Of a stretch of DNA of 64,000 nucleotides, positions 379 to 62,776 are shown piece after piece (positions within the stretch are counted from its first letter, which is position 1; every line of letters starts with the position of its first letter). The notes under the pieces are model-generated. The model made no database searches, was not told where the DNA came from, and worked only from the letters and a program-made list of their open reading frames with translations. A program made the position numbers and the translations under genes. The DNA comes from a virus (Duplodnaviria > Heunggongvirae > Uroviricota > Caudoviricetes): positions 14,318-78,317 of IMG/VR virus record IMGVR_UViG_3300011339_000564; one strand, written 5' to 3'.

Positions 379-444
379 GTAACACTATGATAATAGATGA
401 AGTTGACCATTTGCGGTAATGGAACAATTAACTAGAAAACTAGT

Positions 445-473
445 TTGACAATTTTAATTGTATAGTATATAAT
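445..473 (+). promoter_or_regulatory. sigma70-type promoter TTGACA-17-TATAAT; leaderless transcript predicted
   Basis: TTGACA at 445-450 and TATAAT at 468-473. The ATG at 481 lies only 7 nt after the -10 element. Confidence 0.6.
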
Positions 474-480
474 ATATGTT

Positions 481-849
481 ATGCATATTTTGTCAACTCA
501 ATTAAAATTCACCAAAGAACAAATACTTGAATTTGGTAAAATAACCGGAGACTCGGGGCCTATACATAGCATTGATTTAATAGTACAAGGCGGATTAATT
601 ATAAGTTGTTTACCAAAAATTCTAAATGATATTATGACTAGAGATAATATTGATGAAGGTTATACTCATAGTGTTAGTATGATTTTAGAAGCAAAATTTA
701 GAAACAAATTGCCAGCCGATACATTAGTTACTGTTGATTTTATCCGCGAAGATACTACCAAATTAATTTCCAGATTTAGTTGGCGTGTATATAGTGTAGA
801 TACTGAATATTGTTTTGGTAAATGGGTAATTTACAAAGCTAAACGTTGA
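481..849 (+). CDS. MaoC-like hot-dog fold dehydratase/thioesterase domain protein
   Basis: FGKITGDSGPIHS...IVQGGLI matches the MaoC dehydratase pattern (F..sGD.nPiH....ivhG). 122 aa. Confidence 0.5.
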   Translation: MHILSTQLKFTKEQILEFGKITGDSGPIHSIDLIVQGGLIISCLPKILNDIMTRDNIDEGYTHSVSMILEAKFRNKLPADTLVTVDFIREDTTKLISRFSWRVYSVDTEYCFGKWVIYKAKR

Positions 850-857
850 CTTGATTA

Positions 858-1661
858 ATGGATCATTATGTAACTTTAGGGGTAAACAAAAATGCTACCC
901 CGGACGATATTAAAAAAGCATATCGCAAACTGGCAAGTAAACATCATCCCGATAAAGGGGGCGATACCGCAACGTTTCAACAAATTGAAGAAGCATATCG
1001 TATTCTCAGTGATCCACAACAACGTCAACAATATGACAATCCAATGCCACAAGGCTTTGGGCAGAATTTTAATTTTAACGGTGGACCTGATATCTTCCAA
1101 GACTTTATGAGTCAGGTGTTTAGGCAACAACATCAGCAACATCAACACCGCCAGAGACAAAAACCAGTATTTAGAACCACAGTAACTGTAACACTTGAAC
1201 AGTCATACAAAGGTGAAGAGCAAGTTATCAGACTACAAACACCTACACTTACACATGCGGCAAATATTCAAACTCCGAAAGGGGTTCATAATGGTGACCA
1301 AGTTAAATTTGATAATATCATACAAGAGGCAAGTCTTATTGTAGAGTTTAAAATTATACCACATTTAAAATATGATAGAAATGGAAATGACTTGTTATCA
1401 AATCACCCGATATCAATATTAGATTTAATTACAGGGACATCGTTTGAGTTTACTACTATTTCAGGTAAAACATTTGAAGTTACAGTTAAACCTAAAACGC
1501 AACCATTTATACAATTAAAAATTACAGGACAAGGTATGCCCATACATGGAACCAATCAGTTTGGCGACCAAATAATCTTGTTAAAACCCTATATACCTGA
1601 TATAATTGACGAATCAATTATTAACAGCATTCTACAATCTAAAAATAAGGAATCAATATGA
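858..1661 (+). CDS. J-domain co-chaperone (DnaJ/CbpA-like, no zinc finger)
   Basis: J-domain with HPD motif ([15 protein letters not shown]...QQRQQYD) and a DnaJ C-terminal beta-sandwich region. There is no Cys-rich zinc finger. Confidence 0.9.
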
Positions 1662-3919
1662 CAAATTCTCCGGAAATAGAAAACATTATCGAACAATCGA
1701 TTGAGTATGCCAAACAACGTAAACATCAATATGTTACAGTTGAACACTTACTTCTTGCATTAATTAATCATCCATCTTTTACTAAATGCGTAGTTGGCTT
1801 TGGCATAGATGTTGAGTCAATGTCACACGAAATCACTGGTTATTTAGATAGCTTACACGCTATTGTTTATACTGAAACTGAAGTAGTTCCACGCAAAACA
1901 AGTAGTTTAGAACGGGTTATGAATCGTTCTGTCACTCAGGTTCTATTCACCGGACGTAGACAAGTTACTACTATTGATTTGTATCTAAGTATTGCAAGTG
2001 AAGGTAACAGTCACGCACATTATTTCATGCTCAAATACGGTATGCAAAAGAATGAGTTTGTTGCGTACTGGCAAAAACACTATAAGAATGAAGGCGCCGG
2101 CAATCTTACTGAAAATCAAGCAGATGAAATTCTTGAAGAATATACTATTAACCTAAGTGAACTTGCTAGTCAAGGTAAACTTGAACCATTGATTGGTCGT
2201 GCAAAAGAACTTGATGATATTATCAATGTGCTTGCTAAACGATTTAAATCAAATGTATTGATGGTGGGTGATCCGGGTGTAGGTAAAACTGCTATTGCCG
2301 AAGGTCTTGCACAAATGATGCACGACAAACAAGTGCCTGAATTTTTAGAAGGTCATCAACTATATTCATTAGAAGTTGGTTCATTACTTGCCGGCAGCAA
2401 ATATCGCGGGGACTTTGAAGAAAAAGTCAAAGCCATTATCGATGCATTGAATACTAAAAAGAAAGCTATTTTATTCATTGACGAAGCACATACTATGCAA
2501 GGTGCAGGTTCAAGCTCCAATGGTAGTGTTGACTTTGCTAATATGATTAAACCAGCAATTACTAAAGGCACATTGAAAGTTATTGCTAGTACTACTTGGG
2601 AAGAATACTACGAAAGTTTTGAGAAGGATCGTGCATTAATGCGTAGATTCTATCGTGTCTCAATTGATGAACCAAGCAACGAATCTACTGTTCGAATTCT
2701 TTCTGGACTAAGCACACGATTGAATGACTTTCATAGTGTTGAAATTCAAGAAGATGCAATTAAAGCATCAGTTGAAATGTCAACACGATACATTCACGAC
2801 CGAAAAAATCCTGATAAAAGTATTGACTTATTGGATGCGGCTTGTGCTAAACAACGTGTTGCAGGTAATAAAGGTGCACATATTACTAAAGACTTAGTGT
2901 TTGACCAAGTAGAGAAGTTTACGGGAGTTCCTGCAGATAAGATGAAGGGTGATAATTTTGACCTTATCAATAACCTTGAGATTAATATCAAAGGTAAATT
3001 ATATGGTCAAGATGAAACCGTTCAGCAAGTGTTAGAACGTATCTATGTTAACTTTGCTGGTATCGGTAATGATACTAAACCAACAGGTAGTTTCTTGTTT
3101 TTAGGCCCAACAGGTACAGGTAAAACAGAATTGGCTAAGTTGTTAAGTAAGAACCTTGACATGCCATTGCTCAAATATGATATGAGTGAATACGGAGAAA
3201 AACATTCAGTATCTAGTTTGATCGGTCCGCCCCCTGGTTATGTTGGCTTCGGTGACAGTCAAGTCGGTGGTGGCCGTTTAATCAACGACTTAAGTAAGAA
3301 CCCACATGCTATCATGTTGTTTGATGAAGTTGAAAAAGCACACCCTGATATATTTAACATCTTCTTACAGATGTTAGACGAAGGTACTATTACAGGAAGT
3401 AATGGTAAGAAGGTTAACTGTAAGAATGCTATTATCATTATGACTAGTAACTTAGGTAGTGCCGATGGTGAGCGCAATAACATTGGTTTTGGATCACAAG
3501 ACAAGCAAGGAGAAGATGATAAAGCATTGAAAGAATTCTTTAAGCCAGAATTCAGAAATCGTGTTGATTTGATTTGCAAGTTTAACAAACTTGATAGCTT
3601 GGCTATTAAGAAAATTGTTATTAAGTTTACTGAAGATTTGAAAAAATCATTAATTGAAAAACACAATATCAATTTAGTATTGACAGAACCAGTAGTTGAG
3701 TATCTAGCTGAACAAGGGTATGACAAGAAAATGGGTGCTAGACCACTAGCACGTAAGATTGACGAATTGATTCGTGTACCACTGAGTAAAAAAGTATTGT
3801 TTGAACGCATTAAAAATGCTACTATTACTGCCAACATTGTTGGTGACACTATTGATTTTGCAGTGACACACAAATTAACAGCTAAGGTGAATGACGATGG
3901 CATTATTGAGGTCAGTTGA
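1658..3919 (+). CDS. clpA: ClpA-like AAA+ unfoldase
   Basis: Clp N-domain and two AAA+ modules (Walker A GDPGVGKT and GPTGTGKT). 753 aa with no ClpB middle domain. [11 protein letters not shown] aligns with the ClpA IGL ClpP-docking loop. ATGA overlap with the upstream J-domain gene. Confidence 0.85.
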
Positions 3920-14245: not shown

Positions 14246-15515
14246 ATTAGAATTTACCCAGAAAGAATGGGAAAAGATAGAAAATAACGGGACTTATTGT
14301 CCCGGTTTATTTAACAGCAAATACATAGAAACTGACGGTGGACTGAGAGCATGTTGTGTTCAAGATTTAAAAGGTGAACATTATACAAATACAGAATCCT
14401 ATAACACCACTTCGTTAAAACAAGCCAGACAAAATTCATTATCAGGGATTAAAGATTCCAGTTGCGCTAGATGTTGGGAAAATGAATCATTAAACACCAG
14501 ATCATATAGACAAGGTCTAGTAGAGTCTGCTATTCACTGGAAAAGTAAAATCAAAGATAATATAAATGTTGACTATTCCATCACAGAACCCACCATAGAC
14601 TACTTAGACATTAGATTTGATAATATCTGTAATTTAAGATGTAGATATTGCAGTACTATTTTTAGTTCTAGTTGGAGACACGAAACTGAGTTACTAGAAA
14701 AAGAATTACCAATATTTAAATATATAAAAAGAAGATCAGTAGATACAAAAATATTGAATAGTGTAACCGATATTGACACGATATTAGCTGACCTTAGAAC
14801 AGTTAAAAAAATATTTTTTGCGGGTGGCGAGCCATTAGTAAACGATAAACATTATGAAGTGTTAGAATATCTAATAGATAATAATAGAACCAACATTGAA
14901 ATAACGTATAATACTAATTTTACAAACATTAAAAAAGTTATTCCTTATTGGAAAAAGTTTTCAAACATACACGTGGGTGCAAGTTTAGATGCAAATTATA
15001 AAAGAGGAGAATACATTCGTAAAAATCTCGTATGGGACCAGATTGTAGAAAATAGAAAATTAATGATTGCCGAAGTTCCTCATGTTCAATTTGAAATAAA
15101 TGCGTCAATGAGTATATTGAATGCGTATAATGTAGTAGATTTTCATAAAGAATGGATTAATGATAAATTAATTGGACCTTTTGATTTAACTGCATGGAAT
15201 TTTGTATCTAAACCTGAACATTATGATATTAGGAATTTACCTGACCATCATAAGATTAAATTAAAAGAAATATATCAAACTCATATTGATTGGTTAAACT
15301 CCCTCACATCAGGCAATGATATTAAGTTTAAAAGTAAAAATGATTCTAGTTTTGCTATTCAATCATATCAAGGTATAATTAATAGGTTAAATTTAAGTAG
15401 AAATTCATCTTTTGACAAATTTTGGGAATTTGACAAATGGTTAGATAATAATAGAGATGAAAACTTTTTTGATGTGTTTCCTGAGTATGAGGACTTTGCT
15501 AGATATTTTAGCTAA
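14238..15515 (+). CDS. Radical SAM enzyme with an N-terminal Cys-rich (SPASM/twitch-like) segment
   Basis: CNLRCRYC is a CxxxCxxC motif. An N-terminal YCPGLFNSKYIETDGGLRACC...SCARCW resembles a SPASM-type auxiliary cluster motif. GTG start overlapping the dps stop. Confidence 0.7.
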   Translation: MSKLEFTQKEWEKIENNGTYCPGLFNSKYIETDGGLRACCVQDLKGEHYTNTESYNTTSLKQARQNSLSGIKDSSCARCWENESLNTRSYRQGLVESAIHWKSKIKDNINVDYSITEPTIDYLDIRFDNICNLRCRYCSTIFSSSWRHETELLEKELPIFKYIKRRSVDTKILNSVTDIDTILADLRTVKKIFFAGGEPLVNDKHYEVLEYLIDNNRTNIEITYNTNFTNIKKVIPYWKKFSNIHVGASLDANYKRGEYIRKNLVWDQIVENRKLMIAEVPHVQFEINASMSILNAYNVVDFHKEWINDKLIGPFDLTAWNFVSKPEHYDIRNLPDHHKIKLKEIYQTHIDWLNSLTSGNDIKFKSKNDSSFAIQSYQGIINRLNLSRNSSFDKFWEFDKWLDNNRDENFFDVFPEYEDFARYFS

Positions 15516-19981: not shown

Positions 19982-20540
19982 TTTTATTACAGAATCTGCC
20001 GTAGATGAGTTAGCAAAAAAACTACCCTCATTGACTAAACACGACTATGATACCATTGATACATTAATGAGAAGTATTGCCAGTAGACATAGCATGAGTG
20101 GTAATGCATTACATGATTTGTTTGTAAAAAAATATAAAAGAACACCCGATAACTGGATTAAACATAAATTAGACGAAGGTGATGATTCAGATTTGCAACA
20201 AGAAGTTGATAAATTCTGCGATTGGGCATGTAAACGATTGCATATAAAATCTAAACCTGAAATTGAACTCAGTATGGATACTGAAGAAGCACAAAATAAT
20301 CATCATACAGGTGGTCATCAAATGGGCGCTGATAGTATTTGGGTATATGTAAATAATCGTAACCTAGTTGATATACTACGCACAGTATTTCATGAATTGG
20401 TTCATGTGCGCCAAGGTGAATTAGATATGATTAAGCCGGGTGATAGTTACCCAGGTAGCCCAATTGAAGCAATGGCAGATATGCTTGCGGGCAAATACAT
20501 CAAAATTTATGGTGAACAGAACCATCATATCTTTCAATAA
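19968..20540 (+). CDS. HExxH metallopeptidase-like protein with a CTS-like N-terminus
   Basis: The FHELVHVRQ HExxH motif and the N-terminus MHSSNFITES (compare MRAKEFITEG at 41773). Confidence 0.5.
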   Translation: MHSSNFITESAVDELAKKLPSLTKHDYDTIDTLMRSIASRHSMSGNALHDLFVKKYKRTPDNWIKHKLDEGDDSDLQQEVDKFCDWACKRLHIKSKPEIELSMDTEEAQNNHHTGGHQMGADSIWVYVNNRNLVDILRTVFHELVHVRQGELDMIKPGDSYPGSPIEAMADMLAGKYIKIYGEQNHHIFQ

Positions 20541-20560
20541 TTGATTATTTGTGCTATAAT
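20532..20560 (+). promoter_or_regulatory. Extended -10 promoter (TGcTATAAT); leaderless transcript predicted
   Basis: TGCTATAAT at 20552-20560, a weak -35 TTTCAA at 20532-20537, and the ATG at 20567 six nt after the -10. Confidence 0.45.
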
Positions 20561-20566
20561 GCACAG

Positions 20567-21163
20567 ATGATTAAGATTACAGTTCCATTACCCAAACAAA
20601 TTACTGTTGCATGTAGCGGCGGTGTTGATAGTATGGCTGTAGTTGACTTTCTAAGTCGCAAACACGATGTAACTATTGCCCATTTTAATCATAGAACACA
20701 AAACGGTGAACGTGCCGCCCAATTTGTTTCTGGGTATTGTGGTGATAATAATATTCCTATGCTATACGGATCACCTCGCAGTGAACGCGGAACAAAAGAA
20801 TCAATGGAAGAATATTGGCGCAGAGAACGATATGAATTCCTAAGCGAATTAGGACCGGTCATCACTTGTCATCATCTGGATGACTGTGTTGAGACATATG
20901 TTTGGTCTAGTTTACATGGTACAGCCAAAGTTATCCCACTCACTCGCAAAAATGTATTGCGCCCATTTTTAACTACACGTAAGAGTGAATTTGTTCGATG
21001 GTGTGAACAACATAAAGTTCCTTGGATTGAGGACGAATCAAACAAAGATACCAAATACACAAGAAATTACATTCGCAACGAAATGATGCCACATATATTG
21101 AAAGTCAATCCGGGCATTCATACTTTGGTCAAGAAGATTGTAGAAGGTAAGCAAAATACTTGA
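20567..21163 (+). CDS. tilS: TilS-like PP-loop ATPase, catalytic domain only
   Basis: ACSGGVDSMAVV PP-loop, HFNH, RRERYEF, CHHLDDCVETYVW, LRPFL, WIEDESN..TKYTRNYIRNEMMP. Together these match the N-terminal domain of tRNA(Ile)-lysidine synthase. At 198 aa it lacks the C-terminal tRNA-binding domains. Confidence 0.7.
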   Translation: MIKITVPLPKQITVACSGGVDSMAVVDFLSRKHDVTIAHFNHRTQNGERAAQFVSGYCGDNNIPMLYGSPRSERGTKESMEEYWRRERYEFLSELGPVITCHHLDDCVETYVWSSLHGTAKVIPLTRKNVLRPFLTTRKSEFVRWCEQHKVPWIEDESNKDTKYTRNYIRNEMMPHILKVNPGIHTLVKKIVEGKQNT

Positions 21164-21188
21164 CTTCTCTACGCAAGCCAAGTACAAT
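21160..21188 (+). promoter_or_regulatory. sigma70-type promoter TTGACT-17-TACAAT
   Basis: The -35 at 21160-21165 contains the tilS-like stop TGA (21161-21163). The -10 is at 21183-21188. AAGGAG RBS precedes the ATG at 21212. Confidence 0.55.
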
Positions 21189-24191: not shown

Positions 24192-24220
24192 TTGACATTT
24201 GCAATAAATGCCATTATAAT
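24192..24220 (+). promoter_or_regulatory. sigma70-type promoter TTGACA-17-TATAAT
   Basis: TTGACA at 24192-24197 and TATAAT at 24215-24220, upstream of the ATG at 24265. Confidence 0.6.
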
Positions 24221-35083: not shown

Positions 35084-35112
35084 TTTACAAATTCTGCTGC
35101 CTATGCTATAAT
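35084..35112 (+). promoter_or_regulatory. sigma70-type promoter TTTACA-17-TGcTATAAT
   Basis: TTTACA at 35084-35089 and TATAAT at 35107-35112 with an extended TG. AGGAG RBS before the ATG at 35130. Confidence 0.55.
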
Positions 35113-47191: not shown

Positions 47192-47220
47192 TTGACATAT
47201 ATTCCATTTAACTGTATAAT
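47192..47220 (+). promoter_or_regulatory. sigma70-type promoter TTGACA-17-TGtTATAAT
   Basis: TTGACA at 47192-47197 and TATAAT at 47215-47220. Confidence 0.6.
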
Positions 47221-47255: not shown

Positions 47256-48440
47256 ATGGCTTATTTCTATAAATGGAAAAACAATAGTCAAAAACGCAAA
47301 CTTGTCCCAATCGACAATAAACTCAAACGTGAGAAGAATACCTTTAAGGTTAAGGATGTTGTTGGATTAGCAAAAGAATTGAATGATCCTTCCAATACAG
47401 GATGGCATGACAACATTGCACACTATACTGCAAACAATATTTATTTTGAACTTAACAAGCGTCCTAAGCATGACCAAATTGAATTGCGTCTGTTACTTAG
47501 TGACGAGGACATTCAACGGTTGTTAGATGGTGGACACTGTGCTGACATTTCGGCCCCGGGAGTATTTGATGAGCGCAGACTTAATCCCATTTTTGCTGTA
47601 AAATTACCTAACGAAGATTATTTTCACGTTACTGATGGCCAACACACTCTTGCAGTTATTGCTGGATTAGCACTAGCAGGTAGATTGAAACTTAATGGTA
47701 AAATCATTGAGTCAAAAGATTGGTTGAGCGTTAAGGTTGATGTGATGTATGTAGAAAGTGATAGCCTAAGTTTTGCACGTAAACACTTCCTATATATCAA
47801 TGGTGAAGGTAAGAAACCAATTGAAGAATATGATACTCATGCAGTTAATACATTATGTGTTCGTTTAGATAGTGATACTGATCCAGATTCTCTCAAAGCA
47901 GAAGAATTGCAGGCTATTGCAGAAGAATATGGTATTACTACATTACCTAAAAATCATTCTCAATCAGAAGAACCAAACGCAGTAACTCACATTAGTGGTA
48001 TGAATAAGATGACTGCTGAGGCATGGCGCTTCTTATGTGCAAATCACGCAAAATATTGGTCAAGCGAGAAAGTTGACAATGCTGAATTTGGTTTGTTTGG
48101 TGGACTGTATGAACATTGTACTAAAACTAAATCTGGAATACGTACTGATACTAAAGCATTCACTGAATTTCTCCGTGATTTTAATGCTACAGTAAAAGAA
48201 GTTTTTGTAAATCCAAATGGATTAAAGGAAGCTACTACTGAAGCATATAAAAAGTATTCACTGCAAACAGTTAAGTATGAAAAAAGTCCTGATAAAACAG
48301 TTGCATTGGCAATCGTACTAAAGATTTACAAAAAAGCAGGTGGCACACATATTGTTCCCGGAGTTATTATGGCTCACGCACAAGATGGGTACGATGTTAC
48401 TGATTTTCTTTCTGATGAAATTAAGGCAAAGTTACCATGA
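47256..48440 (+). CDS. DGQH(R)-motif ParB-like domain protein (DndB/DpdB/DUF262-like)
   Basis: YFHVTDGQHTLAVIAGLALAG resembles the DGQHR (DndB, DpdB) and DGQQR (DUF262) motifs. 394 aa. Confidence 0.45.
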   Translation: MAYFYKWKNNSQKRKLVPIDNKLKREKNTFKVKDVVGLAKELNDPSNTGWHDNIAHYTANNIYFELNKRPKHDQIELRLLLSDEDIQRLLDGGHCADISAPGVFDERRLNPIFAVKLPNEDYFHVTDGQHTLAVIAGLALAGRLKLNGKIIESKDWLSVKVDVMYVESDSLSFARKHFLYINGEGKKPIEEYDTHAVNTLCVRLDSDTDPDSLKAEELQAIAEEYGITTLPKNHSQSEEPNAVTHISGMNKMTAEAWRFLCANHAKYWSSEKVDNAEFGLFGGLYEHCTKTKSGIRTDTKAFTEFLRDFNATVKEVFVNPNGLKEATTEAYKKYSLQTVKYEKSPDKTVALAIVLKIYKKAGGTHIVPGVIMAHAQDGYDVTDFLSDEIKAKLP

Positions 48441-48859
48441 AATGGTTCTATGTTATTAAAACAAGTCACAATGACACACTAGGATTTGGAATTACTATTC
48501 ATTTGTCTAAACGATTAGTTGATGGTTATTGTAATCCTAGTGCGGCAAAACAACAATTTTCAAAATTGTATTATGGAGAAAATCTCCATATCAATCAATT
48601 AGAAAAATATATCAAACAGGTATATAGTAATAAACGATTAAACTTTACTAACACACGTACCCGTAAATTAGAATGGATAGATCCAAAATATGACATTTCA
48701 ATTGAGGATTTGATTGATACTGTTGAGGATCGTATTTTGGGCTACCCATTACCTATCAAACGTATCAGGGATAAATTCTTACCATACACCCTTGATAATC
48801 CGGATATCTTTAAAACAATCAATGAGAATCCTGATTTGTTTTTGGAACAACTCGGTTGA
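48437..48859 (+). CDS. Hypothetical protein (weak GIY-YIG-like N-terminus)
   Basis: WFYVIKTSHNDTLGFGITIHLSKRL is loosely similar to GIY...YIGxT...R. Not decisive. Confidence 0.3.
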   Translation: MKWFYVIKTSHNDTLGFGITIHLSKRLVDGYCNPSAAKQQFSKLYYGENLHINQLEKYIKQVYSNKRLNFTNTRTRKLEWIDPKYDISIEDLIDTVEDRILGYPLPIKRIRDKFLPYTLDNPDIFKTINENPDLFLEQLG

Positions 48860-48884
48860 CAACATCTAAATAGTAGTATATAAT
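48856..48884 (+). promoter_or_regulatory. sigma70-type promoter TTGACA-17-TATAAT; leaderless transcript predicted
   Basis: The -35 at 48856-48861 contains the upstream stop TGA (48857-48859). The -10 is at 48879-48884 and the ATG at 48891 follows 6 nt later. Confidence 0.6.
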
Positions 48885-48890
48885 AGACAC

Positions 48891-49889
48891 ATGAAATACG
48901 CACTCATTGACACAGCAAATACATTCTTCCGTGCCCGTCACATTGCATCACGTAATAGTGATACATGGGAAAAGATCGGCATGGCCCTACACTTGACATT
49001 GGCAAGTACTAATCAAATTGTTCGCAAGTTTGGTGTGGATCACGTTGTGTTTTGTTTAGAGGGTCGTAGCTGGCGCAAAAGTTTCTACGAGCCATACAAG
49101 AAAAATCGCATTGTTGATACACTATCACAAACAGAAGCCGAGATTGAAGAAAATAAAATGTTCTGGGAGACGTATGAAGTATTTACAAATTTTTTACGTG
49201 AGAAAACTAATGTTAGTGTCCTTCGTCATGCTGAGGCTGAGGCTGATGACTTAATTGCACGTTTCATTCACTTGCATCCCGATGATGAACATTTTATTAT
49301 CAGTAGCGATAGCGACTATGTGCAATTGATTACCGAAAATGTAAAACAATATAATGGGGTAGCTAATCAACTGATTACGTTAGATGGTTACTTTGATGAC
49401 AAGGGTAAGATTGTCAAAGATAAGAAAACTAAAGAACCCAAGCTACTAGAAGATCCACAATATTTGCTATTTAAAAAATGTATGCGGGGTGATGGTACTG
49501 ACAATGTGTTTAGTGCTTATCCTGGTGTGCGTGAGAAAGGTAGCAAGAATAAAGTTGGCTTGATGGAAGCATATGCTGATAGAGAAAAACAGGGCTACCA
49601 GTGGAACAATCTACTACTTCAACGCTGGCTAGACCATAATGGAGTAGAACATCGTGTACGTGAGGATTATGAACGTAATCGTATACTAATTGATTTGACT
49701 GCACAACCTCAGGATATCAAAGACAAGGTTGATGCTAGTATCATTGAGGGTGTTCGTACAACTACTACCCCTCAAGTTGGTATTCACTTTATGCGATTCT
49801 GTGGCAAATATGAGTTGACTAAGATTAGTGAACAAGCAGAAACATATGCGAAATGGTTGAATAGTCCTTACATGGGAAGTTTAGTATGA
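48891..49889 (+). CDS. 5'-3' exonuclease / flap endonuclease (T4 RNase H-like)
   Basis: LIDTANTFFRARH, AEAEADDLIA, ISSDSDYVQL, and an H3TH-like GDGTDNV. Confidence 0.8.
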   Translation: MKYALIDTANTFFRARHIASRNSDTWEKIGMALHLTLASTNQIVRKFGVDHVVFCLEGRSWRKSFYEPYKKNRIVDTLSQTEAEIEENKMFWETYEVFTNFLREKTNVSVLRHAEAEADDLIARFIHLHPDDEHFIISSDSDYVQLITENVKQYNGVANQLITLDGYFDDKGKIVKDKKTKEPKLLEDPQYLLFKKCMRGDGTDNVFSAYPGVREKGSKNKVGLMEAYADREKQGYQWNNLLLQRWLDHNGVEHRVREDYERNRILIDLTAQPQDIKDKVDASIIEGVRTTTTPQVGIHFMRFCGKYELTKISEQAETYAKWLNSPYMGSLV

Positions 49890-53169: not shown

Positions 53170-53333
53170 CAGAAGAAAAGAAAAGTAAAAATCCGTTTAT
53201 TAATTTAGCTAATGCCGCTAAGAAAGATAGTAAGCATCCTGGATTAGGTAAAGCTCCTAAATCACAAGGACCTAAACCAACTAAGGGTAACGGTGGTGCA
53301 ACGGTTGTTCGTAGAAGCGGTCGCGGTGGTTAA
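53166..53333 (+). CDS. Small basic Gly/Lys-rich protein (55 aa, below the track cutoff)
   Basis: ATGA overlap. Translation MTEEKKSKNPFINLANAAKKDSKHPGLGKAPKSQGPKPTKGNGGATVVRRSGRGG. Confidence 0.45.
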   Translation: MTEEKKSKNPFINLANAAKKDSKHPGLGKAPKSQGPKPTKGNGGATVVRRSGRGG

Positions 53334-53818
53334 TACCATCTACCTTCATTACGCATACGTTTAATGAGAGTTAGATAAGTGCTACATACACCATAGCATT
53401 TTAATTGCACAGTACTAAACAAACTACGGTCATCTATTTCGGGAAGAAAGATAATACTAGTATTGTTTATAGCAACAGTACCCGGAGTGATTAGTTTCCC
53501 ACTACTTGTAGTAACTGGGGTACTCTCAGTAGCATCGGGAAACCAAAAGTAATTAGGATATAATTTACTCGGTTGAGTAGTTAACCAAGTTTGCATGTCT
53601 GTATTTCTAGCGTTGATCCAAAAACGTACACCTTGTAGATATTTTTCGGTCACTTCAGTAGTTGGTTCAAAACTACCCAAATATAGTTTTCCATCTACTC
53701 TCCAAACATCTACCATGCAGGAATATCCGGCGTTGAATGCTTTTCCTATTTGTGCTGGGGTATTAGCATCTTCAAAATTTTGGCTATCAAAGATACCCTG
53801 GTAAGATATATATAACAT
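53330..53818 (-). CDS. Hypothetical protein (weak GDPD/PLC-like pattern)
   Basis: 162-aa isolated minus-strand ORF. ANTPAQIGKAFNAGYSCMVDVWRVDGKLYLG loosely recalls ENT..af..A...G...iE.Dv....dg, but the catalytic residues are not evident. Confidence 0.45.
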   Translation of the reverse strand: MLYISYQGIFDSQNFEDANTPAQIGKAFNAGYSCMVDVWRVDGKLYLGSFEPTTEVTEKYLQGVRFWINARNTDMQTWLTTQPSKLYPNYFWFPDATESTPVTTSSGKLITPGTVAINNTSIIFLPEIDDRSLFSTVQLKCYGVCSTYLTLIKRMRNEGRWY

Positions 53819-53916
53819 AATATGTATTTATGTCAACGGAATACATAGCTGCCGCGTTATATATATGTAGACACAAAAAATGTTGTTCTACTTTCATTAA
53901 CATAAAGGAAATCAAA

Positions 53917-54237
53917 ATGAAACAACTTATCGCTCTATTTGCCGCTGTTGCAGTTGGCACCGCTTTTGCTCAAGCTCCTGCTAAAAAGGAAGAAGCCAAG
54001 CCAGCCGCGGCTGCTCCTGCTAAAAAGGAAGAAGCCAAGCCAGCCGCGGCTGCTCCTGCTCCAGCTAAAGCAACAGCGCCGGCTGCACCTGCTAAAGCAG
54101 AAGCACCAAAAGAAGAAATGAAATTAGCTAAGAAGAAAGAAGACAAAAAAGCTGATGCCACTAAAAGTGAAGCAAAGCCTGCTAGTCCAGCGCCAGCAAA
54201 AGCTGACGATAAAAAAGCCGAAGCTCCTAAGAAGTAA
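53917..54237 (+). CDS. Secreted Lys/Ala/Pro-rich repeat protein
   Basis: Start set at the ATG at 53917 behind AAGGAA. Signal peptide MKQLIALFAAVAVGTAFAQ followed by APAKKEEAKPAAA repeats. Confidence 0.6.
   Translation: MKQLIALFAAVAVGTAFAQAPAKKEEAKPAAAAPAKKEEAKPAAAAPAPAKATAPAAPAKAEAPKEEMKLAKKKEDKKADATKSEAKPASPAPAKADDKKAEAPKK
53974..54060 (+). repeat. 39-bp perfect tandem repeat (2 full copies plus a 9-nt partial third) inside the CDS
   Basis: GCTCCTGCTAAAAAGGAAGAAGCCAAGCCAGCCGCGGCT at 53974-54012 and again at 54013-54051. Confidence 0.9.
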
Positions 54238-54963: not shown

Positions 54964-55169
54964 ACACACTTAAACAACTTTTTAACAGCCTACTAGAGGC
55001 AATACAATCTATCAAAGACTACAAAGCGAGTAAAATGAAATGAATCAATGGCAACCTATGACTGACGAAGATTGGGAATGGGTTAATCATGGTACATTAC
55101 CAAAACCGGTTGACATCCCAGTCAAAACAAACTATAATTAACACACATACACTTTTTTAAGGAAATAAA

Positions 55170-55445: not shown

Positions 55446-55455
55446 TTCTTAACAT

Positions 55456-55480
55456 GAAGGCTCTTTGTGAGCCTTCCTTT
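55456..55480 (+). terminator. Hairpin terminator candidate
   Basis: GAAGGCTC-TTTGT-GAGCCTTC (8-bp stem) followed by CTTT. The ATG at 55454 used by the track lies inside this stem. Confidence 0.45.
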
Positions 55481-55485
55481 ACGGC

Positions 55486-55493
55486 TATAAATA
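55486..55493 (+). promoter_or_regulatory. TATAAATA (exact T4 late promoter consensus octamer)
   Basis: Located 5 nt upstream of the ATG at 55499. Confidence 0.3.
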
Positions 55494-55498
55494 ATTTT

Positions 55499-56122
55499 AT
55501 GAAATATCATATTTTAGGAAGACCGGGCGGAAGCAGACCACTAGTATCAACTATTTTTAATATGATGGGATACAATTCGTATTACGGCTCTTTAGATAAA
55601 CCCAATGACAATGATACAGCAATATTAATAACATATCAATACGATATGTTCGCATGGGTAATGACCTCTAGATACGTTGAAGATATATTATACAATTATA
55701 ATTTAGGTAATAAAGAAAACTTTAATCATTGGCTTACTCACTATGTGGGTCCAGGCACACCGTCAACCCCAGATGATATCAGCATGAGTGATTGGGCGGC
55801 GCACGTAGTGAACAGTTATAAACACATAGGAATGTTTGCTCCTTTAAACGGTATCTATGAAGATTTAGAATTATATTGTAAAGATTCAAAATGTATGCGA
55901 CACGAATTGCCGTTAGAATTAATTGTAGATAGTCCAAATCAGGCTATAATTAGGATAGAAGAAATTACAGAAAAAGTTATGGATCAACAAATTAAGAATT
56001 TTTTCTTAAAAGAAGTTGAGAAACAAAAAATATTACTTTCTCCATGGATGGATGATTACTATAAAGCAAAAGAAAAATCCACAGACAGTTATCTGTGGCT
56101 TAAAAAGCAATCCTCAATTTGA
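55499..56122 (+). CDS. Hypothetical protein
   Basis: Start moved to the ATG at 55499 (MKYHILGRPGGS...), downstream of the hairpin. Confidence 0.5.
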   Translation: MKYHILGRPGGSRPLVSTIFNMMGYNSYYGSLDKPNDNDTAILITYQYDMFAWVMTSRYVEDILYNYNLGNKENFNHWLTHYVGPGTPSTPDDISMSDWAAHVVNSYKHIGMFAPLNGIYEDLELYCKDSKCMRHELPLELIVDSPNQAIIRIEEITEKVMDQQIKNFFLKEVEKQKILLSPWMDDYYKAKEKSTDSYLWLKKQSSI

Positions 56123-56147
56123 CATAAATTCCAAATAGTGTTACAAT
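56119..56147 (+). promoter_or_regulatory. sigma70-type promoter TTGACA-17-TGtTACAAT; leaderless transcript predicted
   Basis: The -35 at 56119-56124 contains the upstream stop TGA (56120-56122). The -10 is at 56142-56147 and the ATG at 56154 follows 6 nt later. Confidence 0.55.
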
Positions 56148-56153
56148 AAGGGT

Positions 56154-57455
56154 ATGAAAAAATTTATACTCATACTATCTATTGTTCTATCCGGTTGTGG
56201 GGGCGGTGGTGGCACCAGTACTGGCGATAGTTCGCAGGCAGTATCAGTAAAATCAACGTGTACCCTTGCTGTAAATTCAAATACAGTTCCACAATCATAT
56301 TATGGCACTAATTCAATACCCACACCATTATCAAAATTTGATAATACTATTCTAAGAGGTATTGGTCTTAAAGATTATCATCCTAGATTTAATCTGGCAA
56401 ATACAAATTGCACTCAAGATGAACATTCCAGATTACTATATCAAAAAACACTAGACAGATTAAAACTATTAAACGTAGATTATGTTGAAGTATATCAATA
56501 TGGCCCGGTAGTTGATTTTAATGCTACTACTTGGGTAGTAGATAAATCTACATGGCAAATACCAGAAAGTGAATTGATCTGGTTTATTAAAGAGGCTAAT
56601 AGTAGAAACATTAAAGTAAATATTATTTGGCAATTATGGCCAACTGATAGTAAAGGTAATACTATAAATTCAAGTTATGATATGTCAGAAGCGGAAATGT
56701 TAAAAGTATTGCGGGGATGGCATAATATTATTGTAGATTTAGCTAAGTTTGGTGGTAGTAATGGTTTGAATATATTAACCGTACATTGGAATGCATTTCA
56801 TTTTCCAGTAACTAACAAATATAAAGAATCTGCCACCTTAGAATTTTTATCAATCATTAATGATGTGCGACAACATTTTAATGGTAAATTATTTATGGGA
56901 GCATCGCCTGTATTTTTTGATAAGAGAATTGTTGAAAAGGTCGATGGTATTATTATTCCATTAACTCCTAGTAATTGGTCTAGAAATGATGATATTAATA
57001 TATCTGTCAGTTTGTTAAAAAGCCGATATTTAGATAATATATTAGGAAAAGCATTAGAACTTTCTATGGCTACTGGATTAGATTTAAAAAGTATTCCGGT
57101 TATCTGGGATTTTAATATTCAGAGCAGAGATAAAGCATTGAGTGAAGGTTGGGTAGAAGATGGATTTTGTATTAAAGAAGGTGGCGATGGTGCCCCTGTA
57201 AGTTGGGGTAATCCTGAATGTGCCAAACAAATGAATTATATAACCGATTTTAGTATTCAAGCATTAGCTATTGAAGGTGCATTTCAGGCTATTAAAGAAC
57301 AAACATTAATTAAAACATATGGTATTAACTTTAGTACTAGTTATTGGCATACTGATACGTTAGTACCCGGGCAAGAAGGCTTTCCCAACTTGTCGCAATC
57401 TATTCGAGGAAAACCTGCTGAGAATGTAGTCAAACATTGGTTCTCCAAAAATTGA
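56154..57455 (+). CDS. Lipoprotein, possible TIM-barrel glycoside hydrolase-like
   Basis: Lipobox LSGC followed by a GGGGG linker. 433 aa. The enzymatic assignment is not supported by a clear motif. Confidence 0.6.
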   Translation: MKKFILILSIVLSGCGGGGGTSTGDSSQAVSVKSTCTLAVNSNTVPQSYYGTNSIPTPLSKFDNTILRGIGLKDYHPRFNLANTNCTQDEHSRLLYQKTLDRLKLLNVDYVEVYQYGPVVDFNATTWVVDKSTWQIPESELIWFIKEANSRNIKVNIIWQLWPTDSKGNTINSSYDMSEAEMLKVLRGWHNIIVDLAKFGGSNGLNILTVHWNAFHFPVTNKYKESATLEFLSIINDVRQHFNGKLFMGASPVFFDKRIVEKVDGIIIPLTPSNWSRNDDINISVSLLKSRYLDNILGKALELSMATGLDLKSIPVIWDFNIQSRDKALSEGWVEDGFCIKEGGDGAPVSWGNPECAKQMNYITDFSIQALAIEGAFQAIKEQTLIKTYGINFSTSYWHTDTLVPGQEGFPNLSQSIRGKPAENVVKHWFSKN

Positions 57456-57480
57456 CAATAAATGGGTATTGTGCTATAAT
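57452..57480 (+). promoter_or_regulatory. sigma70-type promoter TTGACA-17-TGcTATAAT
   Basis: The -35 at 57452-57457 contains the upstream stop TGA (57453-57455). The -10 is at 57475-57480. Confidence 0.6.
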
Positions 57481-57512
57481 AGAATCTTAAACAGTAAAGA
57501 AAAGGAAACGAA

Positions 57513-57788: not shown

Positions 57789-57817
57789 TTGACAGTAATT
57801 GGATTTGGGTATATAAT
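57789..57817 (+). promoter_or_regulatory. sigma70-type promoter TTGACA-17-TATAAT
   Basis: TTGACA at 57789-57794 and TATAAT at 57812-57817. Confidence 0.6.
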
Positions 57818-57848: not shown

Positions 57849-58115
57849 ATGGCTAAGAAAATCTCTATCAAAGTGTTTGCAGACCCCGGACATGCTTGGG
57901 CACGTTTTCCCAAAGCAAAATTGGTCAGTCTCGGTATTGCTGACAAAATTAGTACTTATAGTTACATGAATGGTTCCAATGCATTCTTGGAAGAGGACTG
58001 TGATTTGTCTGTATTGCTGGTTGCTCTCCGTAATCGTGGCTATGAGATTAAATTTAACGAAAGTCACACAAACCGTCAAAGCAAAATCCGCAATTATTTT
58101 ACCTACAAGGCTTGA
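57849..58115 (+). CDS. Hypothetical small protein (early-gene cassette 2)
   Basis: 88-aa ORF. Confidence 0.6.
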   Translation: MAKKISIKVFADPGHAWARFPKAKLVSLGIADKISTYSYMNGSNAFLEEDCDLSVLLVALRNRGYEIKFNESHTNRQSKIRNYFTYKA

Positions 58116-58140
58116 CAATAAATCACTTTGGGTATATAAT
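58112..58140 (+). promoter_or_regulatory. sigma70-type promoter TTGACA-17-TATAAT
   Basis: The -35 at 58112-58117 contains the upstream stop TGA (58113-58115). The -10 is at 58135-58140. Confidence 0.6.
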
Positions 58141-60996: not shown

Positions 60997-61230
60997 ATGT
61001 TCCACAAATTGTTTAAAGATGTAATTATAATAATATTATCAATATTAGCAATATACTTTTGGTTGGGAAATGAAACAGAATATTATGAATATGATAACTC
61101 CGATGATGTTACCATTGAATATAAATGTAGTGTAATTAAAGAATACCAACATGTTCCAGCCGAAGTTCTTAAGGAATGTAGGAAACGGAAAAACGTACCC
61201 GAAGATATTGACGATAAAACAGCAGTGTGA
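60997..61230 (+). CDS. Small membrane protein
   Basis: N-terminal TM segment VIIIILSILAIYFWLG. 77 aa. Confidence 0.5.
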   Translation: MFHKLFKDVIIIILSILAIYFWLGNETEYYEYDNSDDVTIEYKCSVIKEYQHVPAEVLKECRKRKNVPEDIDDKTAV

Positions 61231-61236
61231 TATAAT
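61208..61236 (+). promoter_or_regulatory. sigma70-type promoter TTGACG-17-TGaTATAAT
   Basis: TTGACG at 61208-61213 and TATAAT at 61231-61236. The upstream stop TGA (61228-61230) sits in the extended -10. Confidence 0.55.
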
Positions 61237-61265: not shown

Positions 61266-62603
61266 ATGTCAGCATCGTGGATTCGTAAACTAAATGAATC
61301 AGACAGCCGCCTTCACAAGGAAGACGTAATCAAACAAGCATTAGAGGCAAGTGTCCTTGGTAGCACAAATGCTATTAATTTCCTCTCATTCACTAAAGCC
61401 TGTTATAACCCGTATGTAACATTTGGTGTTCGTCAAATACCAGAACTGGTAGGGATCACTAACGCAGAAAATCCCTGGGAAGAATTTAATGAGTTGATGT
61501 TACAACTTAGTCAACGTAGATTGACTGGTCATGCCGCACGTGATGCTATTCAAAGTATGGCTGAACGTTTTGATAGTGACGAATGGAATACATTCTTAGC
61601 ACCTGTATTGCGTAGAGACTTACGTGCAGGCATTAGCGACAAAACAATCAATAAAATTTGTAAGAAAACAGATTATGAAATTCCAATCTTTGGTTGTCAA
61701 TTAGCGACCAACAGTGAAGGTCGTCCTGAGATGAAAGGCATCAAACGTCTTGAACCTAAGTTAGACGGTGTTCGCATGTTGATGATGGTCATCCCAAGCG
61801 ATTTTGGTGATGTGACTATTATCTGTTTTAGTCGCAATGGCAAACAGTTTGATAACTTCATTGACATTGAAAAACAAGTGCGTGATAATTGGGTCAAGAT
61901 GGTTCGCAAGGCCGCAACGTCAAACTTGAGTATGGGATTTGTACTTGATGGTGAAGTGATTGGTAATAGTTTCCAAGAACTAATGCGACAAGCCCGCCGC
62001 AAGACTGATGTACGAGCAGAAGATAGTGTCTATAATGTGTTTGACATTTTACCTCTAGATGCTTTCCGTGAAGGTCATTGGAATGCTCAACTTGAAAAGC
62101 GCATCAAAATCTTAGATGACATGCGCCCGATCATTGATACTATGCCTAATGTCGAATTGCTTCCGCACATCATGGTTGACCTTGATACGGCCGCAGGTAA
62201 GGATCAACTTGAACGCTATGCCAAAGATAATGTGAACGCAGGGTTTGAGGGCATTATGATTAAAGAATTAGAAGCACCATATATCTGTAAGCGTAGTACA
62301 GATTGGATGAAATGGAAACCTACGATTACAGTAGACTTGGAGGTAGTAGGTGTTGAAGAAGGAACTGGTAGAAATTTGGGAAGACTTGGAGCACTTGTTT
62401 GTCATGGAGTTGACGACGGGAAAGAAATTACAGTCAATGTGGGTAGTGGCTTTAGTGATACTGATAGAGATGACTATTGGACTAACCGTAATTTGGTCAT
62501 TGGTCGTACTGCTGAAGTCCTGTGTGATGTGATTACACAGAACCAAGATGGAACATACAGTTTACGTTTTCCTCGATTTGTTAGATTTAGGGATGACAAA
62601 TGA
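61266..62603 (+). CDS. ATP-dependent DNA ligase
   Basis: Motif I LEPKLDGVRM (KxDG), motif IV FEGIMIK, motif V DWMKWKP, and an OB-domain C-terminus. Confidence 0.85.
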   Translation: MSASWIRKLNESDSRLHKEDVIKQALEASVLGSTNAINFLSFTKACYNPYVTFGVRQIPELVGITNAENPWEEFNELMLQLSQRRLTGHAARDAIQSMAERFDSDEWNTFLAPVLRRDLRAGISDKTINKICKKTDYEIPIFGCQLATNSEGRPEMKGIKRLEPKLDGVRMLMMVIPSDFGDVTIICFSRNGKQFDNFIDIEKQVRDNWVKMVRKAATSNLSMGFVLDGEVIGNSFQELMRQARRKTDVRAEDSVYNVFDILPLDAFREGHWNAQLEKRIKILDDMRPIIDTMPNVELLPHIMVDLDTAAGKDQLERYAKDNVNAGFEGIMIKELEAPYICKRSTDWMKWKPTITVDLEVVGVEEGTGRNLGRLGALVCHGVDDGKEITVNVGSGFSDTDRDDYWTNRNLVIGRTAEVLCDVITQNQDGTYSLRFPRFVRFRDDK

Positions 62604-62776
62604 TTAAAGTAGTATTTGCATTCATTGTTATTTTTGCACTATTCTTTTTGGGCATCAAAACTATCAGAAATATGTCCGGTAAAGATGCATTGGCATTGAC
62701 AAAAATAGTAGGTTATAGTATACTATGTTCACTACTGACGATTGCGATATTAATTTCAATCGTTGTTATTTTTTAA
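62600..62776 (+). CDS. Small two-TM membrane protein (58 aa)
   Basis: ATGA overlap with the ligase stop. Translation MIKVVFAFIVIFALFFLG...ILCSLLTIAILISIVVIF. Confidence 0.45.
   Translation: MIKVVFAFIVIFALFFLGIKTIRNMSGKDALALTKIVGYSILCSLLTIAILISIVVIF

Follow-up and report, generated by a model that had tools for sequence, protein, structure and literature searches.

Promoter-abutted, probably leaderless genes in an uncultured freshwater jumbo phage

Four genes in a 64,000-nt stretch of viral DNA (hereafter the window; positions 14,318 to 78,317 of the IMG/VR record IMGVR_UViG_3300011339_000564, Caudoviricetes) begin directly downstream of sigma70-type promoters, at a distance that leaves no room for a Shine-Dalgarno (SD) sequence. 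They encode a 122-aa protein heading a chaperone array, a tilS-like PP-loop ATPase, a flap endonuclease / 5'-3' exonuclease (FEN) and a lipoprotein. These promoter-abutted, probably leaderless genes are well supported by comparative sequence evidence, and we consider it likely that a leaderless mechanism operates at them.

The usual start point of RNA polymerase is a purine located 7-8 nt downstream of the -10 hexamer. Most promoters of the window would accordingly give mRNAs with a leader of 17-44 nt and an SD sequence, while at four of them only 6 nt (7 nt in one case) separate the -10 from the ATG. Because the A of the ATG is a purine and is the seventh nucleotide after the -10 (the eighth in the 122-aa gene), it is the predicted +1, and the mRNA would start with AUG.

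Near-consensus promoters in the window

Perfect TTGACA-N17-TATAAT sites number eight in the window (445, 24192, 47192, 48856, 55110, 57452, 57789 and 58112), against 0.06 expected from shuffled sequences, an excess of more than 100-fold (0 of 100 shuffles reached eight); all eight lie on the plus strand and precede plus-strand genes. One-mismatch promoters are found at 35084, 56119 and 61208, and further promoters at 21160 (TTGACT/TACAAT) and at the extended -10 of 20552-20560. When up to two mismatches were allowed, 38 sites were counted against 19.5 expected. A preliminary description of this DNA had listed thirteen promoter-like sites, many with an extended TG: about 13 do stand before genes (eight perfect, about five near-perfect), but the extended TG is present at only about five of the thirteen.

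The sigma70 assignment made there holds, as the sites are over-represented, strand-specific and placed before genes, with hexamers 17 bp apart, and relatives keep the hexamers while the spacers vary. To judge from these features, the promoters are near-consensus and of the host housekeeping sigma type and, by analogy with the Pseudomonas phage PA5oct, the phage would be transcribed at least in part from them.

Four promoter-abutted genes

All four close-coupled cases of the preliminary description were recovered, each with a putative leaderless start (all features are on the plus strand unless stated otherwise). The 122-aa protein gene (481..849) lies behind a perfect promoter (TTGACA-N17-TATAAT, 445..473), whose -10 (468-473) ends 7 nt before ATG 481, and heads an array with genes for DnaJ (858-1661) and a ClpA/B-like ATPase (1658-3919). 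This array had been described as a MaoC-DnaJ-ClpA operon; the DnaJ and the ClpA/B-like ATPase are confirmed, but the MaoC label lacks support, the 122-aa product having no Pfam or PHROG match. The tilS-like gene (20567..21163), encoding a PP-loop ATPase of 198 aa (PF01171, residues 11-172), is preceded by a promoter (20532..20560) that combines a weak -35 (TTTCAA) with an extended -10 (TGcTATAAT, 20552-20560) across a spacer of 17 nt; its -10 proper (20555-20560) ends 6 nt before ATG 20567.

The same 6-nt distance is found at the other two genes. FEN (48891..49889; 332 aa, PF02739 at residues 3-159, phrog_107) follows a perfect TTGACA-N17-TATAAT promoter (48856..48884; -10 at 48879-48884) after the hexanucleotide AGACAC. 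The lipoprotein gene (56154..57455; 433 aa, signal peptide and lipobox MKKFILILSIVLSGC) follows a TTGACA-N17-TGtTACAAT promoter (56119..56147; -10 at 56142-56147) after AAGGGT, and the -35 of this promoter contains the TGA of the gene at 55454-56122.

The region around promoter 445 also contains inverted motifs: TTGACAA and CAATTTTAATTG recur between 445 and 510 as reverse complements (TTGTCAA at 490-496 and CAATTAAAATTC at 499-510), and a promoter-like site on the minus strand (496 to 469) overlaps the promoter region. These motifs could represent an operator, a divergent promoter or a coding coincidence.

Start codons are correctly assigned

The alternative that the true start codons lie downstream, behind conventional leaders, had been named in the preliminary description as one of two findings that would speak against this arrangement. 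It was examined gene by gene, and all four ATGs are fixed by protein domains, in-frame stops upstream, the signal peptide and gene calls. For FEN, an in-frame TAA at 48867 makes ATG 48891 the first possible start, the Pfam 5'-3' exonuclease domain starts at residue 3, and the homologues of PA5oct, BF and XaC1 align from that same residue. In the tilS-like protein the PP-loop domain extends from residue 11 onwards, and ATG 20633, the next one available, falls within the SGGxDS motif, so that a start there would lose the motif. The lipoprotein signal peptide with its lipobox (MKKFILILSIVLSGC) begins at ATG 56154, and for the 122-aa protein the alignment with three relatives begins at residue 1. 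For two of the four, the 122-aa and PP-loop (198 aa) genes, the ATG is also the one chosen by independent gene calls in public assemblies, and the substitutions that relatives carry right after the ATGs are mostly synonymous third-position changes. The start codons of the four genes are correctly assigned.

An in-frame TTG upstream of the tilS-like gene (20549) was considered as an alternative start and excluded: in 39 of 44 distinct relatives (L084-L163; handles of this kind denote related loci) an in-frame stop (TAG, TAA or TGA) occupies the three bases before the ATG, a position that reads CAG in the window. No upstream ORF (open reading frame) in that frame needs stopping, and these stops may reflect a preference for T-purine-purine near the start site.

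Missing SD sequences, spacing classes and accessible 5' ends

As the preliminary description had argued, there is no room for an SD sequence at the four sites, and pairing with the anti-SD is weak at all of them, 56154 being less clean (AGGG). Duplex energies with the anti-SD are +0.6 (the 122-aa gene, 481), -1.4, +0.1 and -1.8 kcal/mol, compared with -5 to -9 for the leadered genes. An SD motif is present in 25 of the 35 plus-strand genes that are uncoupled to an upstream gene, and the four weakest pairings among these 35 belong to exactly the four genes with the -10-N6-7 layout (Fisher p = 0.004, a value weakened by the partial reliance on SD presence in curating the start codons).

The distances from -10 to ATG fall into separate classes. 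In the window they are 6, 6, 6 and 7 nt or 17-44 nt, with nothing between; the nine other promoters, at 17-44 nt, each have an obvious SD (e.g. AAGGAG, AGGAG, CAGGAG, AAGGAA). Among 139 distinct strong promoters in about 0.8 Mb of related contigs (a biased sample, since these genes themselves guided the choice of loci, many of which are not phylogenetically independent), there is a peak of 25 at 6 nt and a broad class at 14-37 nt, with hardly any promoter at 2-5 or 8-13 nt.

The predicted 5' ends are also unstructured. The first 25-40 nt of the four predicted mRNAs have a minimum free energy of about 0 (mean of the other genes at 40 nt, -3.05), and the 50-nt folds of all four, which leave the AUG unpaired, are weaker than those of shuffled sequences (z +0.9 to +1.4).

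Conservation of the layout in relatives

Comparison with relatives supplies the strongest evidence. For the tilS-like gene, 44 distinct upstream sequences were available (80-100% protein identity, at least two unrelated upstream contexts). In 42 of them the gap between the end of a -10 (TATAAT, TACAAT, TATACT or TATCAT) and the ATG is exactly 6 nt, and 43 carry the extended TG at -15/-14, in a TG-n-TAnnnT layout. The six nucleotides between -10 and ATG occur in 14 variants.

At FEN, the -10-N6-ATG layout is found in 22 of 45 distinct upstream sequences. Relatives with the N-termini MKY, MKKY, MTYKY, MTKKY and MKQKY all have the ATG 6 nt after the -10; since five N-terminal variants share this distance, the spacing stays constant even as the N-terminus changes. 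Every variant of the leaderless type uses ATG, and the FEN relatives with a GTG start are all leadered and carry AGGTG. The FEN genes of the cultured phages PA5oct, BF and XaC1 have ordinary leaders with an SD. Fewer relatives bear on the other two genes: TTGACA-N17-TATAAT-N6-ATG is kept in two of three relatives of the 122-aa gene (L164 and L166), and TTGACA-N17-TACAAT-GAGGGC-ATG in a lipoprotein relative of 92% identity (L171).

Weighing the explanations

Several observations weigh against leaderless initiation, in addition to the SD-guided curation and the biased locus sample noted above. The bare string TAYAAT-N6-ATG is not enriched in the window (5 against 3.8 expected); it stands at chance level, and the signal lies in its coincidence with full promoters, verified starts, absence of an SD and conservation in relatives. 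The AAGGGT of the lipoprotein gene (GAGGGC in a relative) abuts the ATG and could serve as a badly spaced SD, and since its AGGG lies 1 nt from the ATG this site is the least clean of the four; another lipoprotein homologue (L081, 60% identical) has a 27-nt leader. Many FEN relatives have leaders of about 20-30 nt without an SD; in four of these (L049, L053, L054 and L056) the same FEN promoter and AGACAC are followed by about 22 inserted nucleotides before the ATG, and in others (L013-L021 and similar loci) the leader is A/U-rich. Judging by these relatives, an RNA with a leader but no SD evidently also suffices for FEN, so that a leaderless RNA is not required; in this clade the translation of FEN seems to be generally SD-independent. 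Finally, three of the four promoters are internal to gene arrays and have no terminator before them, so that read-through RNAs carrying these ATGs internally are to be expected. No terminator-like site was found between promoter 47192 and position 48891, and read-through from that promoter would make the FEN ATG internal on the resulting RNA.

These last points lend themselves to an explanation in which longer polycistronic RNAs are the main templates for the four genes and initiation is SD-independent, through re-initiation or 70S scanning after the upstream ORF or through ribosomal protein S1 binding to an A/U-rich stretch, with the abutting promoter acting as an internal booster for downstream genes. 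The missing terminators at three of four sites and the SD-less leadered relatives of FEN, which indicate that SD-independent initiation works for that gene, speak for it, as do the upstream stops 26-32 nt from the ATG and the many coupled genes of the window that also have no SD. It does not account, however, for a 6-nt spacing that stays fixed while the six nucleotides, the N-terminus and the upstream gene all change, nor for the invariable ATG in that layout, and coupling is improbable at 481, where the upstream gene ends 102 nt away. We regard this explanation as unlikely, although it comes next in probability after leaderless initiation.

A layout that is tolerated and not selected could also arise if compaction and the shuffling of near-identical promoter cassettes, as with the PeSL elements of T4-type phages, happened to land promoters beside start codons. 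The same promoters do flank different genes (the relic at 407-448 described below, the genes upstream of tilS and FEN, and the loci L082 and L083), and T4-type phages are known to recombine at their promoter cassettes (PMC2839356). Yet the spacing is exact in 42 of 44 tilS contexts and across the N-terminal indels of FEN, which argues for selection on the spacing itself; nine promoters of the window have roomy leaders, so compaction is not forcing the layout, and no stem-loop terminator accompanies the promoters in question. This account appears very unlikely to us. Mis-assigned starts, or chance hexamers in AT-rich DNA, are the least probable of all and would be surprising: the low G+C content (36-38%) and the chance frequency of TAYAAT-N6-ATG are in keeping with such an origin, but domain boundaries, signal peptide, upstream stops, synonymous variation from the ATG onwards and gene calls fix the starts, and perfect promoters are over-represented more than 100-fold.

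Leaderless initiation at the four genes remains the explanation we favor. The mRNAs would then be translated through direct binding of ribosomes at the 5'-terminal AUG, with no SD involved, and the layout would tie translation to transcripts from the gene's own promoter, because an SD-less internal ATG on a read-through RNA would be poorly used. The early timing of these promoters and a selective translation under conditions that the phage imposes, both proposed in the preliminary description, are conjecture. A more far-reaching proposal, which we put forward as speculation and think quite unlikely, is that leaderless initiation forms a deliberate and evolvable regulatory class, whose genes are translated only from RNAs of their own promoters and are silent on read-through RNAs, with lineages switching between leaderless, SD-less leadered and SD-leadered states, perhaps combined with a phage-induced change in host initiation that favors 5' AUGs.

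Stop codons inside the -35 hexamer

The preliminary description had also pointed to five TGA stops within -35 hexamers (21161-21163, 48857-48859, 56120-56122, 57453-57455 and 58113-58115), and these do terminate ORFs, at 20549..21163, 48437..48859, 55454..56122, 56154..57455 and 57849..58115, respectively. As the hexamer contains TGA, a gene that reads into TTGACA in the matching frame must end there. At the three in-array sites the overlap of stop and promoter is unavoidable, because the minimal promoter and its spacing (6+17+6+6 = 35 bp) exceed the gaps of 26-31 nt. At the 3' end of the tilS-like gene about 33 of 42 distinct relatives keep the stop within the -35, although the spacer varies, and a leader with a strong AAGGAG comes after it; upstream of FEN it is not conserved, relatives ending the upstream gene at TAA or TAG or carrying another gene. 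The stops in the -35 are a by-product of packing a promoter against the preceding gene and call for no separate mechanism. The extreme compaction invoked in the preliminary description does explain them, but it explains the leaderless layout poorly, given the nine window promoters with leaders of 17-44 nt and the FEN relatives with SD-less leaders of about 20-30 nt.

The gene whose stop lies in the FEN -35 (48437-48859) matches GIY-YIG/MUG113 weakly (E = 2e-4 and 7e-3). Many relatives lack it at the position upstream of FEN, and it may represent an insertion of homing-endonuclease type beside the promoter.

Leadered promoters, rejected sites and gene replacements

Among the nine leadered promoters, the first (TTGACT-N17-TACAAT, 21160..21188) holds the TGA of the tilS-like gene in its -35 and is followed by a 23-nt leader with AAGGAG and ATG 21212. 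A perfect promoter at 24192..24220 has a 44-nt leader with an SD (ATG 24265), a TTTACA-N17-TATAAT promoter at 35084..35112 a 17-nt leader with AGGAG (ATG 35130), and a perfect promoter at 47192..47220 a 35-nt leader with AAGGGG (ATG 47256). Four further perfect promoters stand at 55110..55138 (31-nt leader with AAGGAA, ATG 55170), 57452..57480 (lipoprotein TGA in the -35, 32-nt leader with an SD, ATG 57513), 57789..57817 (31-nt leader with an SD, ATG 57849) and 58112..58140 (TGA of 57849-58115 in the -35, 34-nt leader with CAGGAG, ATG 58175). The small genes behind these four are not paralogous to one another (18-20% identity). The last promoter, TTGACG-N17-TGaTATAAT at 61208..61236, has a 29-nt leader with AAGGAA and ATG 61266.

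Two further sites were considered as leaderless starts and rejected. At 62696-62727, a TTGACA-N17-TATACT sequence directly abuts an ATG, but it lies inside a plausible 58-aa ORF with two predicted hydrophobic, transmembrane-type segments (62600-62776) and opens an ORF of only 44 aa; it is probably an internal or chance promoter. At 53830 (CATAAT-N8-ATG), a better start is available at 53917, with AAAGGA. In the same region (53816-53832), a minus-strand ORF of 162 aa (53330-53818) and a plus-strand ORF begin 11 nt apart, and the ATG of the minus-strand ORF has TTGACA 12 nt upstream and no SD.

Comparison with relatives also revealed gene replacements next to promoters. Upstream of promoter 445 lies a 13-codon relic (407..448; PFAVMEQLTRKLV and stop), the 3' end of the gene that precedes this promoter in relatives, with its TGA inside the -35. 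In L164-L166 the same sequence forms the C-terminus (LNRAVMEQLxxxLx and stop) of a longer acidic protein, whose gene is replaced in the window by a different one (181-378). With some 35 nt between the junction and the -35 downstream of it, promoter 445 and a short upstream flank were kept through the replacement. In two related loci (L082, 1475-1512; L083, 1103-1140), a promoter near-identical to 57452-57512 (TTGACAATAAATGG and onwards) drives a different gene, of 74 aa (MKSKIF at its N-terminus), in the leaderless N6 layout. The promoters appear to be junctions of gene mosaicism.

The phage and its probable host

The window has a G+C content of about 35-42% and tightly packed plus-strand genes. 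A megablast search of GenBank phages with its 47-52 kb segment gave no match, and an exact-sequence look-up of the FEN protein returned no record. Look-ups of the 122-aa and tilS-like proteins matched DNA metagenome contigs only, whose ends carry no information on start sites. The FEN protein is 46-50% identical to homologues from the jumbo phages PA5oct (Pseudomonas), BF (Serratia), fHe-Yen9-04 (Yersinia), pEa_SNUABM (Erwinia) and XaC1 (Xanthomonas), and PA5oct is the closest cultured relative by this measure (49.5% identity). IMG/VR holds more than 590 FEN relatives, on contigs of up to 525 kb, the best 80 being 80-97% identical, and an identical copy of one window protein is present on a 77-kb JGI contig. 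From these matches, the window is part of an uncultured, environmentally abundant freshwater jumbo phage, a distant kin of PA5oct, BF and XaC1.

Judged by analogy with these distant cultured relatives alone, the host would be a proteobacterium; the window contains no tRNA genes that might hint at it. The sole match in the bacterial genome collection was a 2153-bp contig (L170, CAIUKX010000078.1) in a Flavobacteriales metagenome bin, with a TTGACA-N17-TATAAT-ACACAC-ATG layout and the N-terminus MKQKYALID. This contig is a weak clue and was rejected as evidence on the host, as the TTGACA/TATAAT promoters and frequent AGGAG of the phage do not fit the expression signals of Bacteroidota, and short contigs are often mis-binned.

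Significance and comparison with known systems

E. coli and Pseudomonas have few leaderless mRNAs, and mapping detected none in phiKZ, the sole jumbo phage with a primary transcriptome at single-nucleotide resolution. A widespread environmental clade that maintains an exact promoter-ATG spacing at several genes offers a natural comparative data set on what leaderless mRNAs need in spacing, AUG and an accessible 5' end, and the conserved layout hints at a host in which such mRNAs are efficiently translated. In phage metagenomes, start codons that lack a ribosome-binding site in this way are real, and annotation pipelines should not penalize them.

The cI gene of phage lambda is transcribed from PRM, and similar leaderless cases are 434 cI and P2 gene V. 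Genes of this type are single regulatory genes of temperate phages, expressed at low level in lysogens from weak, activator-dependent promoters. The lambda cI mRNA is leaderless (PMC9031893), and the genes described here resemble it in having a host-sigma70 promoter that would put the start at the A of the AUG, no SD, an AUG codon, a phage origin and, probably, a Gram-negative host. They differ in that about four of thirteen promoters of a large, apparently lytic jumbo phage are concerned, that the products are enzymes, a chaperone array and a lipoprotein, and that the promoters are of consensus strength, in contrast to the weak, activator-dependent promoter of cI.

In bacteria, leaderless mRNAs make up about 17% in Caulobacter crescentus, are abundant in Mycobacterium and other actinobacteria, and account for 0.7% in E. 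coli; for their translation the AUG has to stand exactly at the 5' end, AUG is the preferred start codon, even short leaders are not tolerated, and the 5' end must be accessible (PMC8459731). The features of the window and its relatives (ATG only, fixed spacing, unstructured 5' ends) fit these requirements. In P. aeruginosa PAO1, 55 of 2187 start sites are leaderless, and differential RNA-seq of phiKZ found none among 65 start sites (PMC8244752). With about 30% of its recognizable promoters in the abutting layout, the window is nearer to the leaderless-rich bacteria than to E. coli or Pseudomonas; the bacterial classes comprise cellular genes with mapped starts, whereas the genes here are viral and predicted.

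PA5oct, with 32 host-RNAP (RNA polymerase) promoter sites showing TTGAC and TATAATA motifs, depends on the host enzyme (PMC7318152) and shares with the window a reliance on consensus-like sigma70 promoters; in its first 50 kb the convincing promoters all have leaders of 26-52 nt, and none is placed at the 6-7 nt distance. The PeSL elements of T4-type phages are mobile cassettes that combine a strong early sigma70-like promoter with a stem-loop, and recombination at them is documented (PMC2839356). The window resembles them in its repeated near-consensus promoters at the boundaries of small genes. Relatives differ by gene replacements that appear to join at or near promoters; different genes flank the same promoters there, and the relic at 407-448 adds a further case. 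No terminator-like hairpin, the second PeSL component, was found beside promoters 445, 48856 and 56119. Leaderless mRNAs as such are already known, and what stands out against these systems is the proportion of about four in thirteen promoters, the consensus strength of those promoters and the conservation of the layout across the clade.

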